From contig JAUWQI010000006.1 of assembly GCA_030611085.1 (NCBI GenBank), positions 1-52,781 on the forward strand: 52,781 bases of DNA, given 5' to 3'. This stretch comes from Dehalococcoidia bacterium (GTDB lineage: Bacteria; Chloroflexota; Dehalococcoidia; GIF9; AB-539-J10). Within the stretch, counting starts at the first letter, position 1. Each line of letters begins with the position of its first letter. This document shows, piece after piece, positions 5,360 through 41,900 of this stretch. The notes under the pieces were generated by a model. That model worked only from the letters and a program-made list of their open reading frames with translations, was not told the origin of the DNA and did not search any database. A program made the position numbers and the translations under genes.

Positions 5360-5469
5360 ATAGCCATTTTAGCATGCCCAATCTGGCAAAATCACACCTC
5401 GTGCCCTTTCCTCTCCATATCTTCTCCAATCTAAAAGCTTTAAGGTCGTTTAGTCCCCGACTGTAAGCT

Positions 5470-5550
5470 CTGAGCCCTCCGTATCTTGTCATTCTGAGCG
5501 AAGCGAAGAATCTCTCCACTCAGGACAGGCTCCGCGACCGAAGGATTTCT
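5470..5550 (+). repeat. Family A (TGTCA-tagged) palindromic repeat, nested form
   Basis: TGTCATTCTGAGCGAAGCGAAGAATCTC at 5487-5514 inside CTGAGCCCT...CTCAGGACAGGCTCCGCGA; same layout at 9742-9808. Confidence 0.85.
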
Positions 5551-5585: not shown

Positions 5586-5651
5586 TGTAGTTGCCCAATT
5601 TATTGGGCGATTCTGCCTGATGAATCAGGCAACTACAAGAATTTGAGGTGA
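5586..5651 (+). repeat. Family B GTAG-type REP doublet (REPIN-like)
   Basis: TGTAGTT-GCCCAATTTATTGGGC-gattct-GCCTGATGAATCAGGC-AACTACA plus a flank shared with the 11060 copy. Confidence 0.9.
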
Positions 5652-7700: not shown

Positions 7701-7916
7701 TTAAGGAAGCCCTGTAGTCTTTCGGTATTCATTCACCGTTTGCATCATAGTTTGGAAATCCTTATCTCCCAGGGTCTTCTTCCTTTCAATCCATTGTTGG
7801 AGTACTTCGATAACGATTTCTCGAAGTGACTTACCTTGCTCAACAGCAGCAATCTTTACTGCTTTAAGGAGCTCCACATCCCCTAAATCTACTGTTACTC
7901 TCGTTCCTTTGGTCAT
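7701..7916 (-). CDS. Small ribbon-helix-helix/CopG-like DNA-binding protein
   Basis: RVTVDLGD.EL.KAVKIAAVEQGKSLREIVIE pattern; SD GAGGAG; upstream TGTTATAAT. Confidence 0.75.
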   Translation of the reverse strand: MTKGTRVTVDLGDVELLKAVKIAAVEQGKSLREIVIEVLQQWIERKKTLGDKDFQTMMQTVNEYRKTTGLP

Positions 7917-9734: not shown

Positions 9735-9868
9735 TGTCATTCTGAGCCCTTCGCTTTTTGTCATTCTGCGCGTAGCGAAGAATCTCACCGCTCAGGACAG
9801 GCTCCGCGAAGAATCCAGGCCATTCGCTTGCCTCTTCGCTTCGCTCAGAGCTTCGGCTCAGGGTGACA
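9735..9868. repeat. Family A composite (nested) doublet
   Basis: TGTCATTCTGAG...[TGTCATTCTGCGCGTAGCGAAGAATCTC]...CTTCGGCTCAGGGTGACA. Confidence 0.88.
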
Positions 9869-9880
9869 AGATAAACAACC

Positions 9881-11038
9881 TCAATCAGGCGAAAGGAATC
9901 GGGAGATTATTTCAGCCAAATCCTCGATATCCTTCTGATAGACAAATTCATCCTTGCCGTGGATATTGCATTCCGCTCTGATTACCCCCAGTCCAAATTC
10001 CTTAGCCCCCCATTCCGAGGTAACGATGTAAGGCAAATCTCCGGAGCCCATTTCGCCAAACTTGCCACTTTGCCCGATAACTTCTTTGATTGTGCTGGCT
10101 AGCTCATCCACAATAGGGTCCTGGCAAGGGAGTACAGTGGGAATTCGGTAAATTCTTTCCACCTCCCAATTTACTCCTTTGACTGAGGCGAGAGTATCCA
10201 TCAATTCTTTTTCTGCCTCCTCTATATTTTCCTCAGGAATCAATCTTCTATCTACAGAAATTAGACATTGATCGGGAATAATGTTGACTTTGAGCCCGCC
10301 TTCAATCTTATTTATATTCAATCTCGATTCCATTTTGGCAAGTCCTGTGTCGGGATGGACAGCAATGGTTGATTTTCTCTGCGCCACCTTACTTTTAAGG
10401 TTGAGAAGGGTTGTCACCAAAAGGTTTGCTTTCTCTACAGCATTCTCTCCCAAGTGAGATAACCCTGAGTGAACTGACTTTCCGTTCACCTTGATATCCA
10501 TATGAATCACTCCAAGGTTAGCTATTCCCACATAACCGAAGCTAGAATCAAGACTAAAGATATAACCCCCAGCCACAGGTTGTAAAAATTGAGTTAAATA
10601 GCGAATTTGGCTAGCCTGGCTTATCTCCTCATCAGTGGTAATCATTACCGAGGTGTCGTATTTCAAAGGTTTCCCCTTGAGCTTTCCCAAACCGAGAAGC
10701 AAGGCGATAATTGCTCCTTTCATATCCGCTGCCCCTCGACCATAGATTTTCCCATCGGCCACTCTAGGACAGAAAGCATCCCATCCTTCGGCAGGAACTA
10801 CATCAATGTGACCATAGAAAATTAACCTTGGCTTTTGGGGCTCCCTCCTACGGCAGATAAGATTGACTCTTCCTTCTCTTCCCTCAGCATATTCTTCAGG
10901 AATATAAATCTTCTGAGCTTCGAAGTCTGCACCCTCAAACAAAGGTTGAAGATAATCAATTACCTTGCCATAATTCAAGCCCGGTGGAACAGAAGTATCA
11001 ATTGAAATAATATCTTTTAAAACTTTGACATAGTCCAT
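9881..11038 (-). CDS. M20 metallopeptidase/deacylase (ArgE/DapE-like)
   Basis: GHIDVVP, GRGAADMKG, TDEE, G.SVHSG, NIHGKDE. Confidence 0.92.
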   Translation of the reverse strand: MDYVKVLKDIISIDTSVPPGLNYGKVIDYLQPLFEGADFEAQKIYIPEEYAEGREGRVNLICRRREPQKPRLIFYGHIDVVPAEGWDAFCPRVADGKIYGRGAADMKGAIIALLLGLGKLKGKPLKYDTSVMITTDEEISQASQIRYLTQFLQPVAGGYIFSLDSSFGYVGIANLGVIHMDIKVNGKSVHSGLSHLGENAVEKANLLVTTLLNLKSKVAQRKSTIAVHPDTGLAKMESRLNINKIEGGLKVNIIPDQCLISVDRRLIPEENIEEAEKELMDTLASVKGVNWEVERIYRIPTVLPCQDPIVDELASTIKEVIGQSGKFGEMGSGDLPYIVTSEWGAKEFGLGVIRAECNIHGKDEFVYQKDIEDLAEIISRFLSPD

Positions 11039-11059
11039 CTTACGCCTCCCGATGATATC

Positions 11060-11123
11060 TCACCCTCCAATTTTTGTAGTTGTCTGATTCATCAGGCTTA
11101 GCCCAATAAATTGGGCAACTACA
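11060..11123 (-). repeat. Family B REP doublet (left flank of hicBA)
   Basis: Core 11075-11123 TGTAGTTGTCTGATTCATCAGGCTTAGCCCAATAAATTGGGCAACTACA. Confidence 0.9.
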
Positions 11124-11126
11124 TTT

Positions 11127-11328
11127 CTATACAGCTCTATACAGCTCTATACAGCCTCATTTTTTGTCTTCCCTTGCCCCTGCCAACTGCCAACTATTAA
11201 CCGCGTTTACAAGGTTCATAAAATTCATAAGGTTCAAAGGTTTGTAAAGTTTCACCCCCACCTTCAAACTTTCTAACCTGCAACCTTCTAACCTTCCAAC
11301 CTCTGTCTTTAACCTCCTAACTTGCCAG
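11127..11328. repeat. Patchwork of 10-, 7-, 9- and 8-bp degenerate tandem repeats
   Basis: (CTATACAGCT)x3; CTGCCAA CTGCCAA CTATTAA; GTTTACAAG GTTCATAAA ATTCATAAG; ACCTTCAA ACTTTCTA ACCTTCTA ACCTTCCA. Confidence 0.8.
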
Positions 11329-11351
11329 CCTTTTACCCTTTCTGCTATGCT
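11322..11351 (+). promoter_or_regulatory. Putative hicBA promoter
   Basis: TTGCCA-18 bp-TATGCT with an extended TG. Confidence 0.5.
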
Positions 11352-11367
11352 AAAGATGGAGGCTGTT

Positions 11368-11661
11368 ATGAAATTCACTGTTATTTTGGAGCCTGAGGAA
11401 ATTGGATACTCTATCCAGTGTCCTGCTCTGCCTGGCTGTGTTAGCCAGGGTGACAGCCGCGAGGAAGCCCTGTCTAATATTCGGGAGGCTATCGAGGGGA
11501 TTTTAGCTCTGAGAGAGAAGCACAATATGCCTTTCCCAAAAGAGACACCCGAACTTATGGCAAAGGAGATACGTTGCTGCCTTGAGGACCGCAGAGCAGA
11601 AGGACTTCCCCTCACAATTGAAACTGAGGAAGTAGAGGTGTCACCAAAGGTAGCAGTTTGA
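11368..11661 (+). CDS. hicB: HicB family antitoxin
   Basis: FTVILEPEE.GYS..CPALPGCVSQGDSREEAL.NIREAI; SD GGAGG. Confidence 0.92.
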   Translation: MKFTVILEPEEIGYSIQCPALPGCVSQGDSREEALSNIREAIEGILALREKHNMPFPKETPELMAKEIRCCLEDRRAEGLPLTIETEEVEVSPKVAV

Positions 11662-11882
11662 TGGCGAAGCTGCCTGTAGTAAAAGGAGATGCCGCCATCA
11701 AAGCTTTCGGGGAGGCTGGGTTTCACCTTGATCATTGGAGTGGAAGACATGCTATTCTTTATCATCCAGACAGGCGTCACCTTAGCATCCCAGGTGGAAA
11801 GAAAGAGCTTAAGGCGGGTACCTTGCGAACCTTGATCCGCAAAGCTGAACTTACCGTCGATGAATTTACCAAACTCCTCTAG
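11661..11882 (+). CDS. hicA: HicA family toxin (mRNA interferase)
   Basis: MAKLP...GF....SGRH..L....IP...EL.GTLR.LI..A.LTVDEF; start overlaps the hicB stop. Confidence 0.9.
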   Translation: MAKLPVVKGDAAIKAFGEAGFHLDHWSGRHAILYHPDRRHLSIPGGKKELKAGTLRTLIRKAELTVDEFTKLL

Positions 11883-11917
11883 TCCTCTCGTTGCTCTCAA
11901 CTTTCCCTCTTTACAAG

Positions 11918-12063
11918 ATTCTAATATCTAAGCTCTAAATACTAAGTTTCCTCTCTGTCATTGCGAGCATTTTGTAGGGGAGGATCTTGTACCCTCCCAA
12001 GGGATAAGGTGGGGATAAACCCCGCCACTACGGCTGCGAGGTGGAAGTTTTGCATTTTGATTG
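11918..12063. repeat. Stacked repeats: 7-mer arm, family A head, GTAG REP doublet (family D), TTTTGCATTTTGA arm
   Basis: ATTCTAATATCTAAGCTCTAAATACTAA; TGTCATTGCGAG at 11956; GTAGGGGAGGATCTTGTACCCTCCC...GGTGGGGATAAACCCCGCCACTAC at 11974-12031. Confidence 0.8.
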
Positions 12064-12083
12064 CTCGTTCAATTTACGCATTC

Positions 12084-12132
12084 TGTAGTTGCCTGATTCA
12101 TCAGGCTTAGCCCAATAAATTGGGCAACTACA
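12084..12132 (-). repeat. Family B REP doublet (right flank of hicBA)
   Basis: 48/49 identical to 11075-11123, same orientation. Confidence 0.92.
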
Positions 12133-12189
12133 TTTTTGGACAGTTTCTATTTCACAATTGCCTCAACCCATATTATAGTATAGCAGTAA

Positions 12190-12438
12190 ATGTCGCTGAC
12201 TGATGCCTTCCAGCACTCAGAAAACTGCGACCTTTTCATAGTCGTTGGCTCCAGCCTTGTGGTCACTCCGGCTGCCGACATACCCAAGGTGGCTCTAGCA
12301 CATGGAGCCAGACTGGTAATCATCAATCAAGGCGAAACTCCCTTCGACCGAGTGGCTCACTTGCAATTCCAGGAAAGCATAGGAGAGGTCCTGCCTCCAG
12401 TGGTGGCACAGCTAAAGGAACTAATGAAAGCATCATGA
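12190..12438 (+). pseudogene. C-terminal fragment of a Sir2/CobB sirtuin
   Basis: CDLFIVVGSSLVVTPAA and LVIINQGETPFD present; the GAGIS, QNID and Zn-ribbon parts are absent. Confidence 0.8.
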
Positions 12439-12677
12439 CCATCCAGGAAAAGCTCTCCCAGGGGGCAAGTTACTCTCAGGAACTGAGTCTGAACTTAAGA
12501 AAAGAAGAAGATAGGTTTAAGTAGTTTCTGGCTTCAATCCAGTGAAGCTAATCCATAAGCAGCATAGCTTCCTGCCGGTCCTGCTCCTACTATAATGCCA
12601 TCATAAAATTGGCTTGCCAACCTGGCACTACTTACCCAAATTCCTGTTCTCTATGTTAACATAGGAAACGGATGTAA

Positions 12678-14228
12678 ATGAATATCCTTCTCATTGACCC
12701 GAAAATTAACGCTTGGGGATATAGTGCTCCAAAAAGCATAGACCCCTTTGGCCTTATCTGCGTGGCTACATACCTTAACCACACTGGGCAAAAGACCGAA
12801 ATCCTCGATATGAATGCCAGCCAGGTGAGTTGGGAGAACCTTCCTTTAGTAATTAAAGAAAAGAACCCTGATATTGTGGGAGTTCCTAGCTCTATGAATT
12901 GCTATGTTCCTGAATCTTTGAGAGTGGTCAAAATAGCCAAATCAGTCAACCCCGCTATCATCACCCTTGGCGGGGGAATAAACTTTACTCTTAACAGCAT
13001 AAATATAATGAAGCAAGCCCCCGGGCTTGATTTTATTGTTAGAGGGGATGGGGAATATACCACATTGGAACTGATAAAGGCGCTAGAGAATGGAGGGAAA
13101 GAGTTAGACAAAATTTTGGGCATAACCTACCGCAGTGAGGGAGAAATTAGCGTCAACCCCGAGCGTTCCCCAATTATGGATTTAGATTCGCTTCCCCTGC
13201 CTGATTGGGACCTCTTAGATATGGACAAGTACGGGGTGAACGCATTCCCTCCACAGTGGGGGAAACAAATAATGCTTACTATATCCCGTGGCTGCCCTAA
13301 CCACTGTCGTTATTGTGCCCCAACTTTAGCTGCTCAGAGGTATCGGGAATTGAGCGCAGAAAGAGCCCTCGAGATACTTACTATCCTGAGGCGGAAGTAT
13401 GACCGCAGGATGATTTGGCTGAACGACCTCACTTTTGGCGTGAACGAGGAAAGGACAGTTAAGCTTTTAGAAGGGATTATCAGGGATAAACTGGATATCA
13501 ATGTTGTTGTTGATATGACAGCGGAGCTAGTCATTAAGCGGCAAAATTTGCTGCCTCTGATGAAGAGGGCAGGATTTCAGTATATAGATATCGGTGTGGA
13601 ATCCCCGATAGAGGAAGACCATAGAAAATACCAGGATAAAGCTAAGGGCTGGCATAAGGCTGAGGAGGCTTTTCGTCTCCTCAGGAAAAACAAAATACTC
13701 CCTGCGGGCTATTTTATGATTGGAGAGGTGGAACATACGGCAAAGGAAATCCGCCGTATTCGTGAGCTTGCTGAAAAACTCGACCCTGCCATAGCTTACT
13801 TTTGCTTTGTCAATCCTCAACCAGGCACTCCTTATCATGAAGATGTTAAGGACTATATTATCACCGAAGACCTCTCTTGTTATAACGAATCTGGGCCTGT
13901 GATGAAGTATCCCCATCTCAGTGATAACCAGATAAGGATGCTTTATCGAGAGGTATGGACAAGCTACTATGCCCGACCAACCAGGATATTACGAAGGCTC
14001 CTCTTTGGGGGAACCCAAGGGAGGTCATTTTATTCTACGGTAGCCTTCCAGAAGAAATGGGGCTGGGAGTTGGAGGAGGTTTGGAGGAGAACGGGATGGC
14101 AAGGTTGGGGGGAGAAATATGGCGAACTCAAGAAATGGGCAAGGAAGGAACTGGGACTTACAGGTTTCATTCCCTGGCTGGAAGAGCTAGGGAAATCTAT
14201 TCTAAAACGCCTGGGGAAGACAGGATAA
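12678..14228 (+). CDS. B12-binding domain radical SAM protein
   Basis: N-terminal cobalamin-binding domain (P.GL..VATYL, LGG, D.IVRGDGE), SRGCPNHCRYC, IGVES, PQPGTP. Confidence 0.9.
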   Translation: MNILLIDPKINAWGYSAPKSIDPFGLICVATYLNHTGQKTEILDMNASQVSWENLPLVIKEKNPDIVGVPSSMNCYVPESLRVVKIAKSVNPAIITLGGGINFTLNSINIMKQAPGLDFIVRGDGEYTTLELIKALENGGKELDKILGITYRSEGEISVNPERSPIMDLDSLPLPDWDLLDMDKYGVNAFPPQWGKQIMLTISRGCPNHCRYCAPTLAAQRYRELSAERALEILTILRRKYDRRMIWLNDLTFGVNEERTVKLLEGIIRDKLDINVVVDMTAELVIKRQNLLPLMKRAGFQYIDIGVESPIEEDHRKYQDKAKGWHKAEEAFRLLRKNKILPAGYFMIGEVEHTAKEIRRIRELAEKLDPAIAYFCFVNPQPGTPYHEDVKDYIITEDLSCYNESGPVMKYPHLSDNQIRMLYREVWTSYYARPTRILRRLLFGGTQGRSFYSTVAFQKKWGWELEEVWRRTGWQGWGEKYGELKKWARKELGLTGFIPWLEELGKSILKRLGKTG

Positions 14229-14331: not shown

Positions 14332-14397
14332 TGTCATTCTGAGGGAGCATAACGACCGAAGAATCTCTTGAGACCCTTCGCTTCGCTCAGAGTGACA
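14332..14397. repeat. Family A inverted doublet
   Basis: TGTCATTCTGAG...GAAGAATCTC-TT-GAGACCCTTCGCTTCGCTCAGAGTGACA. Confidence 0.9.
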
Positions 14398-15184: not shown

Positions 15185-15251
15185 TGTCATTCCGAATGAA
15201 CTGAAGCGGAATGAAGAATCTCAGAGATTCTTCGCTGCGCTCAGAATGACA
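15185..15251. repeat. Family A inverted doublet
   Basis: TGTCATTCCGAA...GAAGAATCTC-A-GAGATTCTTCGCTGCGCTCAGAATGACA. Confidence 0.9.
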
Positions 15252-32643: not shown

Positions 32644-32696
32644 TGTGGTTGCCTGATTTATCAGGCATAATTCGCCCAATAAATTGGGCAACTACA
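32644..32696 (-). repeat. Family B REP doublet between the MTase and proA
   Basis: TGTGGTTGCCTGATTTATCAGGC-ataattc-GCCCAATAAATTGGGCAACTACA, abutting the MTase stop. Confidence 0.9.
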
Positions 32697-38926: not shown

Positions 38927-41900
38927 ATGGAGCTTTCCGGTTTACTTTCCTTGCTTAGAAAAGTCCCCTTTTACAAACAACTGGTGCGGCAAATATCCAC
39001 AGCCAAAGGTGAACACAGTATATCAGTGCTCGATGCCGCCAGGCCTTACTTTATAGCTGCTCTCCATAAAGAGCTTAGTTTACCTTTGATTGTGGTAACC
39101 ACCCAACCTGAGAATGCCAGGACGCTCTATGAGCAACTTCAAGCATGGTGTTCTCCTTCATCCAATTTGCACCGTTTCCCGGAAGTCGGTTCCCCCCCTT
39201 CCACCAACACCATGTCGGAAAGATTACAGGTGCTAGCTTCTTTAGCCCTTTATAAGCCCTCCGCCCCTTGTCATTCTGAGGGAAGCGAAGAATCTAGAGG
39301 CCCTATGGTGGGGATGAACCCTGCTACTACGTTTGGGGTGACAGCTAAACGACCTCCTTTGATAGTAACCTCAGCCTTAGCAGCTATAATTAAAACCGCT
39401 CCTCAAGGAGATTTTGCCTCTGCTTGCCATACTTTAAATCAAGGCATGCATATTGACCCCATAGAACTACTACATAAATGGCAAAGTATCGGCTATGAAA
39501 TGGAGGATGCTGTTGAGGTGCCTGGGCAAGTAAGCAAACGAGGTGGCATTATTGATGTTTTTCCTCCTTGTAGCTCATCACCAGCTCGAATAGAGTTTTT
39601 TGGCAACCAGATTGAGAGCATAAGGCTTTTCGACCCAGAGAGCCAACGCTCCACCACGCCAATACATTCAATAACCATCACTCCAGCTAAAGAGCTTCTC
39701 AACAATGGAAGTATCCTTGACTACCTGGGTGATAATGCTCTTCTTATTCTTGATGACCCAGAGGAAATCAAAGTTGCCATCCAGAGGCTTTATGCCCAAA
39801 GCCAGGAGCTGGAGCAAGGCGAATCACCTCAGTGCTCTCCTCCTCCTTATCTTGCCTGGGAGAAATTAGAGCCCAAAATAAGGGTAAGGCATCGTCTGAT
39901 GTTGAAATCCACCTCGGAGACCCTTCGCTTCGCCCAGGGTGACAAAGGAGACACTCAGAGTGACATAATTGAGAGCAATGGAAGGTTGCTTCGCACCGCT
40001 CGCAATGACATTGCTTTGCCTTTCTCCCCTTGTCAAAGTTATGGAGGCAAATTGGAACGATTCCTCAAGGCAGCCAGGCAAATGCTCCAACAAAGACAAT
40101 CCGTGCTCGTAGTTAGCCATCAAGCAAATCGCCTGGCTGAGCTTCTTCAGGAAGAAGGTATTTATCCCGCATTACAAATGGAACAAGCTCCCCCTCCTGG
40201 TTCAGTCACTGTGCTTCGAGGTTCACTGGCTGAAGGTTGGGAGTTACCAAATATTTTAAATTTAATCACCGATGCTGAGCTCTTTGGCTTTGTGAAGCAA
40301 GCACGCCCAGGTAGAAAAACGCCAGTGCGAACTAGCTTGCTCCTTCCTCAGTCAATGCCAGGAGATTATGTAGTCCATGTTGACCACGGCATTGCCAGAT
40401 TTAATGGTTTAACACGAATGTCCACCGATGGAATTGAGCAGGAATACCTTGTTTTAGAGTACGCTGGCAGCGACAGGCTTTATGTACCCACAGAGCAAAT
40501 AGAGCGCGTCAGTCGCTATATTGGAAGTGGTGACCAGGCACCAATTTTGAGTCGACTGGGAACGCAGGAATGGCAAAGAACAAAGGAACGGGTTAGACAA
40601 TCAGTGGTTGATATGGCTCAGGACTTGCTTGAGCTCTACGCTGCCAGGGAGGTAGCTCCAGGCTTTGCCTTCTCTCCTGACACATTATGGCAGCAGGAAT
40701 TGGAAGCATCATTCCCTTATATGGAAACGCCAGACCAGCTTGAAGCAATTACGGCCGTCAAAGAGGATATGGGAAAAAATAAGCCCATGGACCGGCTCAT
40801 CTGTGGAGATGTGGGCTATGGCAAAACTGAGGTGGCTTTGCGCGCTGCCTTCAAAGCAGTGATGGACAACAAGCAAGTAGCTATACTGGCACCCACCACT
40901 GTGCTGGCTCAGCAACATTTCACTACCTTCACCGAGAGATTGCAAGCTTTTCCTCTAAGAGTGGAAATACTGAGCCGCTTTTGTTCCTCAGAAAAAGAAG
41001 AGAAAATTCGTGAAAGCTTAGCTAATGGCACCACAGATATATGCATCGGCACTCATCGCTTATTGCAAAAAGACATCGTATTCAAAGACCTGGGACTGGT
41101 GGTAATTGATGAAGAGCAACAATTCGGCGTGGCGCAAAAGGAGAGGCTTAAACAAGTGAGAAAAGAGGTAGATACTATCGCCCTGAGCGCCACCCCCATC
41201 CCACGCACCCTCCATATGTCCTTAACCGGAATCAGGGATATGAGCATCATGGAAACACCACCCGAAGAACGCTTATCCATTAAGACCTCTGTTGGTGTTT
41301 ATGATGATACCCTGGTTAGGCAGGCGGTATTGCGTGAGTTGGAGAGAAATGGTCAGGTCTTTTTTGTTCATAATCGAGTTCAGAGCATCGTTTTAGCCGC
41401 CAGCAAGTTACAGGCTCTGGTGCCCGAAGCCAGAATCGCCATTGCTCATGGGCAAATGCCCGAGGAAGAACTAGAAAAAGTGATGGCAGATTTTATCGCT
41501 GGCACTTATGATGTCTTGGTCACCACCACTATTATCCAGTTGGGCTTGGATATGCCCAATGTCAACACGCTAATTATTGACCAGGCTGACAAATTTGGTT
41601 TAGCTCAGCTTTATCAGTTGAGAGGCAGAATAGGCCGTGGCATCAACCAGGCTTATGCTTATTTCCTATATGATAAAGGCAAGCAGCTAACTGCCCAAGC
41701 CCATAAAAGGCTTAAGACTATCTTCGAGGCTACAGAGTTGGGTGCTGGGTTTGGTATTGCTATGAAAGATTTGGAGATTCGTGGCGCGGGGAATCTTCTG
41801 GGTGTTAAGCAGAGTGGGCATATAGTTGCTATAGGTTTTGACCTTTATTGCCAGATGATGGCTGAGGCAGTAGAGGAGGTCAAAAAAGTCAGGAGTCAAA

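Follow-up and report, generated by a model that had tools for sequence, protein, structure and literature searches.

A lineage-specific insertion of a predicted hicBA toxin–antitoxin pair bounded by REPINs in a Dehalococcoidia genome

Repetitive extragenic palindromic (REP) elements are short imperfect palindromes that follow a conserved GTAG-type tetranucleotide, that occur in many extragenic copies and as inverted doublets (REPINs), and that are accompanied by a cognate REP-associated tyrosine transposase (RAYT) gene, itself flanked by REPs. IS200/IS605 elements and their gene-less derivatives have hairpin ends on one strand, leave no target duplication, and are associated with a Y1 HUH transposase related to RAYT. 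Here, we describe a predicted hicBA type II toxin–antitoxin pair that lies in an insertion ending in REPINs on both sides, in the 52,781-nucleotide contig JAUWQI010000006.1 (positions 1 to 52,781, the window in what follows), which forms the entire contig C27 of the uncultured Dehalococcoidia bacterium assembly GCA_030611085.1 (G000; 1.16 Mb, 30 contigs, 83% complete). The usual view of REPINs is that of passengers without genes, which are a sign of old and stable DNA, whereas here an apparently recent module ends exactly in them. For Pseudomonas, mobile elements have been located in “REP deserts” (PMC3390384). The mechanisms by which chromosomal toxin–antitoxin modules move and integrate “remain unelucidated” according to a review (PMC7167474), and the REPIN flanks of this module hint, without proof, at how such gene pairs move.

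In the sections that concern us here, Bertels and Rainey (2011, PMC3116915) describe tandem REPIN clusters that include flanking sequence, and a spacing of REPINs in P. fluorescens SBW25 that shows no departure from random, and no excess of pairs, above 200 bp. The present system resembles the REPIN–RAYT system in its inverted REP doublets, its many extragenic copies, its tandem clusters and, in relatives, a Y1 gene flanked by the same repeats, but it differs from that of SBW25 in that same-variant doublets 0.5–2.2 kb apart enclose genes, that one such pair forms the ends of an apparently recent insertion, and that no RAYT was found in G000. As an example of chromosomal insertion hotspots for toxin–antitoxin modules, ccdO157 of E. 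coli lies in the folA–apaH spacer, which holds REP sequences in other strains, and its integration mechanism is given as unelucidated in the part of the review by Fraikin et al. (2020, PMC7167474) that treats it. Both are type II modules in a short spacer that in relatives carries other small mobile or repeated DNA; however, the repeats here stand on both sides as the ends of the insert, while at folA–apaH, as far as that part of the review goes, REPs are alternative occupants. ParE/RelE 26 of Photorhabdus laumondii lies between two almost identical palindromes that are similar to a Tn3 res site (PMC13617665). It, too, is a toxin–antitoxin module between near-identical palindromes that is absent at the site in relatives, but its palindromes belong to a known transposon family, as resolvase sites, and those of our locus are REPINs of a 53-copy chromosomal family. 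Integron cassettes with attC sites likewise carry one or two small genes, often toxin–antitoxin genes, between direct structured repeats; unlike them, our locus has no integrase on its contig and no array by attI, and its repeat is dispersed genome-wide and also flanks housekeeping genes in relatives. Finally, the locus departs from IS200/IS605 elements in that no transposase lies inside the insert or was found elsewhere in G000, and in that the cargo is a toxin–antitoxin pair. The literature searched, supplements being outside its scope, yielded no description of a REPIN-bounded toxin–antitoxin module or of other REPIN-bounded cargo.

Our central observation is a lineage-specific insert of 1,090 bp (11059–12148) between divergent housekeeping genes for an M20 peptidase and a Sir2 protein (Table 1). 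In an alignment of the spacer between these genes, the sequence common with relatives ends at 11058 and resumes at 12149, and the ends of the insert are the left arm of its first repeat (REPIN 1) and the right arm of its second (REPIN 2), with no further foreign DNA outside and no target duplication. The target is the divergent M20–Sir2 promoter region, of 58–170 bp. In the congener G001 (72% complete, with an M20 protein 88% identical in amino acid sequence to that of G000) and in G011, M20 and full-length Sir2 genes (235 and 233 aa, respectively) are also divergent, with spacers of 167 and 67 bp and with neither hicBA nor a REPIN. We compared the site across six related genome loci and 57 metagenome loci that encode an M20 relative: hicBA was found beside M20 at none of the six, and HicA or HicB at none of the 57, 11 of which show M20–Sir2 adjacency at distances of 55–292 bp. 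The original prediction, which was made from the letters of this stretch alone, had taken the segment for a gained, ~1-kb REP-bounded cassette, and as a description this is right: hicBA is absent at the site in 6/6 genome and 57/57 metagenome loci, and the 1,090-bp insert starts and ends in REPIN arms.

The M20–Sir2 spacer is a hotspot for small repeats. It is bare at the loci L089, L110, L101, and L096, and in G001, L114, and L102 another hairpin repeat (TGTCATTCTGAG...; the TGTCATTCTGAGCGAAGCGAAGAATC family) stands at the same point. This second dispersed hairpin family (TGTCATTCTGAGCGAAGCGAAGAATC...) is also represented in the window at 5469–5537, 9741–9809, 14370–14397, 15224–15251, and 39251–39319, and at 7805–7880 of L019. 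The Sir2 gene at the insertion is a remnant of 82 aa, in which ~150 internal codons were lost in frame and the promoter (12151–12179) and start codon were kept; an intact Sir2 paralogue is encoded on contig C24 (28559–29098).

Turning to the module itself, the hicB product matches Pfam HicB_lk_antitox (PF15919; 34.3 bits, 3e-08) and that of hicA matches HicA_toxin (PF07927; 43.5 bits, 3.5e-11), with a cutoff of 27 bits for each family and 1whz_A as the closest solved chain to HicA (E 1e-4). Genes for a HicA-fold toxin and a HicB-fold antitoxin thus lie side by side, as in HicAB systems, and we predict that they form a type II toxin–antitoxin pair. HicB most likely comprises 97 aa, from the ATG at 11368 behind GGAGG (the longest open reading frame begins at 11347), and HicA comprises 73 aa; the hicA start codon and the hicB stop codon have one base in common (TGATG). 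These lengths are kept across six genomes (five orthologues), and dN/dS against the five orthologues is 0.08–0.14 for hicB and 0.03–0.15 for hicA in four of five comparisons, the fifth hicA comparison being dS-saturated; by these substitution-based measures, hicBA is intact and under purifying selection. A candidate promoter (TTGCCA-18-TATGCT) has its -35 box at 11322–11327. The proposal that the repeats enclose only hicB and hicA with their promoter and repeat debris agrees with the Pfam matches and with the non-coding remainder, and the stabilization of the insert by toxin–antitoxin addiction, suggested alongside, is an inference. PADLOC returned no match for hicA and hicB, nor for what the other REPIN pairs considered below enclose.

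Six genomes from other genera (G015, G007, G066, G020, G006, and G075) have a hicBA with 78–84% DNA identity to the block 11337–11945; in five of them, hicBA adjoins response-regulator genes. The block was not found in G001 (72% complete). There is no REPIN within 1 kb of hicBA in any of these six genomes; a wider search, whose seven best loci cover four of these genomes, likewise shows no REP unit at those seven. Homology to the hicBA of relatives starts ~30 bp upstream of hicB, and G000 therefore retains the -10 box and ribosome-binding site, while the -35 region is new. We note that hicBA of G020 is flanked by a perfect 25-bp direct repeat with a small palindrome (L149, 2396–2420 and 3040–3064), a motif different from the REPIN, and that G007 carries a sequence related to this 25-bp repeat on the upstream side only.

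Each of the two repeats at the M20–Sir2 site consists of a GTAGTTGCC-hairpin, a 3-nt tta spacer, and the inverse of a second GTAGTTGCC-hairpin, and is thus a REP doublet. In both halves, GTAGTTGCC is followed by a hairpin with a 6-bp stem, which provides the GTAG-type tetranucleotide and the palindrome that characterize REP elements. Across G000, we counted 138 REP units (72 of one hairpin type and 66 of the other) and 53 complete doublets, with spacers of 3–24 nt in 33 variants, of which tta has eight copies. The outer arms are common to most copies, the left one being “...cttcacccccaaattttt” or a longer “ggctgtttaattttgatttctcgttcaaatttct” and the right one “atttttaaacagcc”. Matches to the B unit number 47 in G001, 66 in G007, and 31 in G023, with 0 for reversed-pattern controls, and the REPIN family is common to other genera of the same taxonomic family. 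The earlier assignment of the repeats to REP elements is consistent with all of these properties (GTAG hairpins, inverted doublets, and dispersed copies); Rfam returned just two matches, both below threshold and at chance level.

The pair at 11075–11123 and 12084–12132 forms direct repeats in the same orientation that agree at 48 of 49 positions, in line with what was first reported, with a sole mismatch of T at 11083 vs C at 12092, and the match can be extended to 63 nt at 92% identity (11072–11134 vs 12081–12143). The further copies in the window, which had been placed near 5586 and 32644 and described as more distant, do differ more: that at 5587–5636 has the spacer agaatc and the opposite orientation, and that at 32645–32695 has the spacer ataattc. 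Folded as single-stranded DNA, each member of the pair is predicted to form a 7-bp outer stem enclosing two 6-bp hairpins, with energies of -11.4 and -14.8 kcal/mol (z -4.5 and -5.8; equaled by 0/200 shuffles). Both belong to the eight-copy tta-spacer subfamily, in which the 47-nt core is identical in four copies, the core of REPIN 2 being 47/47 to those at C4:2795, C19:1459, and C19:3729. Over 63 nt, the members of the pair are mutually nearest (58/63, vs ≤56 for others).

The pair is not special in sequence; it is special in arrangement. Among the 34 adjacent REPIN pairs of G000, eight are in tandem (<100 bp), all of them direct and with identical or near-identical spacers, and 10 are 150–3000 bp apart. 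Four of these 10 have the same spacer and all four are direct (C4, 512 bp; C16, 897 bp; C27, 962 bp; C19, 2,223 bp), and no spacer is shared in the 16 pairs that are further apart. Four such same-spacer pairs would be very rare by chance, with a binomial P of 2.6e-4, and were reached in 17 of 100,000 shuffles of the spacer labels. In each case, the repeated block reaches past the REPIN: the C16 block measures 265 bp (86% identity), that of C19 159 bp, that of C4 77 bp, and that of C27 63 bp. As to whether other pairs also enclose toxin–antitoxin genes, a check proposed at the outset, the C16 pair holds a second hicBA-type module (a UPF0150-type HicB at 92.9 bits and a weak HicA at 20.4 bits vs the cutoff of 27), which brings the total to two of the four same-spacer pairs; the C4 pair encloses a 155-aa protein with a weak RsbRD_N match, and the C19 pair encloses proteins of 244 and 295 aa without a Pfam match. 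HicA matches in G000 number 11, two of which are bracketed by same-variant REPINs and seven of which have no REP unit within 3 kb.

All four same-variant pairs sit at loci that are rearranged compared to relatives. At the C4 locus, 1,066 bp separate tRNA-Arg from tRNA-Ala in G000, and the two are direct neighbors in G007 and G015. At the C19 locus, the gene for the 244-aa protein lies 124 bp from the next conserved gene in G001, with neither the 295-aa gene nor a second repeat. At the C16 locus, G001 has an orthologous hicBA (86%) with a single upstream REPIN, and the block is inverted relative to plsX. The REPIN spacer of C16:1–1260 (L048), gggctc, is confined to this pair within G000.

With regard to the enzyme, PF01797, the Y1 transposase family, is present in 24 of the 81 genomes of the taxonomic family. 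In G007 and G023, the gene for a Y1 protein of 132–165 aa has a radical SAM gene of the AmmeMemoRadiSam type on one side and AMMECR1 on the other. Among NCBIfam models, the protein scores best against that for REP-associated tyrosine transposases (NF047646), at 69.7 and 68.4 bits and thus under the cutoff of 80; its scores against the IS200 model are lower (37 and 31 bits). In both genomes, the gene is directly flanked on both sides by co-oriented REPINs of the family described here; the GTAG of the REPIN on its 3' side contains the stop codon, and in G023 this REPIN belongs to the 47-nt tta variant. In G000, the radical SAM and AMMECR1 genes are 199 bp apart (C18:22890–23088; compare L069 and L070), with two tandem REPINs and the transposase leader, including its ATG, between them. 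The sequence of this leader also recurs as the standard linker in the tandem REPIN arrays of G000 (C8, C13, C18, and C26). Together, these findings indicate that the lineage once had a REPIN-flanked RAYT-like gene and that gene-less derivatives of the unit have spread; in G000, the gene itself appears to have been lost. The part of the original prediction that invoked RAYT-mediated mobilization gains from the REPIN-flanked RAYT-like gene in relatives, but loses from G000 itself, in which none was found and the syntenic locus is empty of it, and such mobilization is at present unlikely in this genome. Apart from this locus, G007 contains a REPIN-punctuated accessory island (L072, C4:184–195 kb), in which eight co-oriented REPINs in ~10 kb separate small gene blocks that encode a pilin, a prepilin peptidase, a HicB-like protein, a nucleotidyltransferase (with a presumed neighboring HEPN partner), PaREP1, and a LuxR-type regulator, along with a second RAYT (NF047646, 95.3 bits vs the cutoff of 80).

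The module now looks fixed rather than actively excising. We checked four public runs at the level of contigs, in which rare variants are not visible, and found no excised, circular, or single-repeat form in these contig-level data, nor a joint of 11058 to 12149 in the two source-like runs, and excision, which had been part of the original prediction, is unlikely at present in G000. Runs labelled as cold seep metagenome contain the stretch and may be where it came from. One contig of a more distant relative (run X5) skips from 11022 to 12170 and represents an empty site in that relative, and many short joints (side <30) derive from other repeat copies. As initially stated, no integron integrase is present on the contig: PF00589 has no match on C27 and four matches on C11, C29, C15, and C28, and instead of the IntI, attI, and attC of an integron we find repeats that are REPINs.

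Taking these observations together, we tentatively favor a reading in which REPIN copies acted as portable homology by which host recombination or template switching brought in a hicBA segment with its own REPIN; we regard this as a real possibility, although one that stops short of being probable. A hicBA segment carrying a REPIN would have recombined with a REPIN at or near the M20–Sir2 site, through a Campbell-type homologous exchange or a template switch at the hairpins, and the outcome would be one REPIN on each side in direct orientation. The hypothesis that the observations make testable is that REPINs supply ends or homology for the shuffling of one- and two-gene blocks; if only host recombination at dispersed repeats is involved, the locus is ordinary, though still instructive as a case of micro-rearrangement driven by repeats in a small, repeat-dense genome.

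Several observations weigh against this reading. For recombination that depends on RecA, 47–63 bp is a short length of homology. In the nearest empty sites (G001, L114, and L089), there is no REPIN able to serve as a landing site, and the five G023-like loci that do have a single REPIN carry it inverted, upstream of the M20 gene by 155 bp, and have no Sir2. No donor or scar locus was found in G000, where the response-regulator neighborhood has matches of just 27–35% identity and no clear orthologue. Furthermore, the pair is not uniquely alike: the two C19 copies are 49/49 to the right copy and closer to it than the left copy is, and the left copy differs from all four identical copies by one same base. 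The statement that the members of the pair are closer to each other than to other copies does not hold genome-wide, and equal identity among other copies, which had been named as telling against a cassette, is indeed what is seen within the tta subfamily. Beyond 63 nt, the left copy is nearer to C15:48915, over both 77 nt (65 vs 63) and 107 nt (74 vs 70), and the left arms of REPIN 1 and REPIN 2 are of different types, so there is no signature of a single duplication or crossover; a comparison of the arms of both REPINs with the other 51 copies gave no crossover-identifying pattern. At the C4 and C19 loci, the boundaries of the stretch that sets G000 apart from relatives are not those of the REPIN-to-REPIN interval. 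In G007, aspS, tig, and other housekeeping genes likewise lie between same-spacer REPIN pairs in direct orientation, which makes direct orientation alone a regional property of the family.

The alternatives share some of this evidence. The two REPINs may have been there before the module, as a tandem pair into the linker of which hicBA and debris were later brought by illegitimate recombination. As tandem arrays are common (8/34 adjacent pairs at <100 bp, all direct), this would explain the shared subfamily and orientation without a REPIN-mediated move, and it suits the fact that both REPINs are complete with their own arms, as well as the gene-free tta/tta direct pair, 366 bp apart, of G001. 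However, G000 has no tta-type tandem pair at <100 bp, no relative has a tandem pair at the site, and two independent events would be needed at a 58-bp target along with an insertion mechanism that would have to be postulated, such that we consider this order of events unlikely. A RAYT acting in trans might instead have moved the whole REPIN–hicBA–REPIN unit in the manner of an IS200/IS605-type single-strand transposon before the enzyme was lost from G000. The RAYT-like gene of G007 and G023 has the same architecture, with co-oriented flanking REPINs and its stop in the 3' GTAG; the syntenic site of G000 keeps two REPINs with the leader and ATG, the leader being the tandem-array linker of gene-less derivatives that spread; the second RAYT of G007 lies with several toxin–antitoxin genes in the run of eight co-oriented REPINs; and our insert ends exactly at REPIN arms, with hairpin ends on the same strand and no target duplication at 11058/12149, as in IS200/IS605-like elements. 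Such elements would also call for a Y1 enzyme in the cell and a unit that moves whole, but no Y1 transposase (PF01797) was found in the 83% complete G000, no second, identical copy of the unit was found, no excised form was seen in contigs, hicBA orthologues elsewhere have no REPIN ends, the REPIN-flanked Y1 proteins stay below the RAYT cutoff (69.7 and 68.4 vs 80), and RAYT transport of cargo was not found in the literature searched. We thus consider this route quite unlikely, and hold similar doubts about the broader notion that REPIN pairs are the ends of cargo-carrying non-autonomous single-strand transposons, that is, a RAYT unit with its transposase swapped for a toxin–antitoxin module. 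If it were true, REPIN/RAYT systems would be one missing vehicle by which toxin–antitoxin genes spread in streamlined Dehalococcoidia chromosomes.

It is also conceivable that hicBA arrived by an unrelated route and that two REPINs inserted later and independently, their match being due to regional bias. A second REPIN would be both tta and direct with a chance of ~0.07 (7/52 x 0.5), REPINs in G007 form long co-oriented blocks, and the site is a repeat hotspot. On the other hand, no inserted non-REPIN DNA lies outside the REPINs, four same-spacer direct pairs at 150–3000 bp are very unlikely by chance, and two of the four hold hicBA-type modules although G000 has only 11 HicA matches; we hold coincidence to be very doubtful. 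Lastly, a cassette unitig that really belongs elsewhere could have been joined by the assembler, by way of identical REPIN cores, to the flanks with M20 and Sir2, given that public contigs break exactly in the REPINs (pieces 10300–11113, 11100–12110, and 12109–12900) and that four 47-nt cores are identical. Nevertheless, the cassette and its flanks are of equal depth in two runs (13.9 vs 15.2 and 11.7; 21.6 vs 26.1 and 21.8), REPIN 1 has its private T variant and private arms that run into unique sequence on both sides, and a repeat of 47–63 nt is shorter than ordinary reads, which makes such an artefact highly improbable.

Table 1. Coordinates of the features in and around the insertion, in window positions.
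Feature	Position	Strand	Basis and remarks
M20/M25/M40 peptidase gene	9881..11038	-	Pfam Peptidase_M20 1.8e-25 and M20_dimer; conserved left flank, start codon 20 bp from insertion
REPIN 1 left arm (ctcaccctccaattttt), starts insertion	11059..11075	+	Spacer alignment; same kind of arm in at least 12/53 REPINs
REPIN 1 core: GTAG-hairpin A, tta, inverted GTAG-hairpin B; T variant at 11083	11076..11122	+	
REPIN 1 right arm	11123..11155	+	10-bp unit tctatacagc x3 in tandem, 11126–11155
Low-complexity non-coding filler	11156..11336	.	No DNA match in relatives; candidate -35 box within
hicB, predicted antitoxin	11368..11661	+	Pfam HicB_lk_antitox
hicA, predicted toxin	11661..11882	+	Pfam HicA_toxin
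3' flank	11883..12046	.	11883–11945 travels with hicBA in G015; rest consists of pieces of other dispersed repeats (gtcattgcgagc..., ggggataaaccccgccact) with many short matches in relatives
REPIN 2 left arm, long-arm variant	12047..12084	+	Comparison with arms of C13:17682, C29:12388, C28:27834
REPIN 2 core	12085..12131	+	Core comparison, fold
REPIN 2 right arm (atttttggacagtttct), ends insertion	12132..12148	+	Spacer alignment
Sir2 promoter and start codon, then 82-aa remnant	12149..12438	+	G001 235 aa, G011 233 aa

As a minor observation on the assembly, several contig ends of G000 (the starts of C4, C23, and C24; the starts of C20, C28, and C29; and the ends of C24 and C25) share 60-nt sequences, which are probably insertion-sequence copies that broke the assembly.

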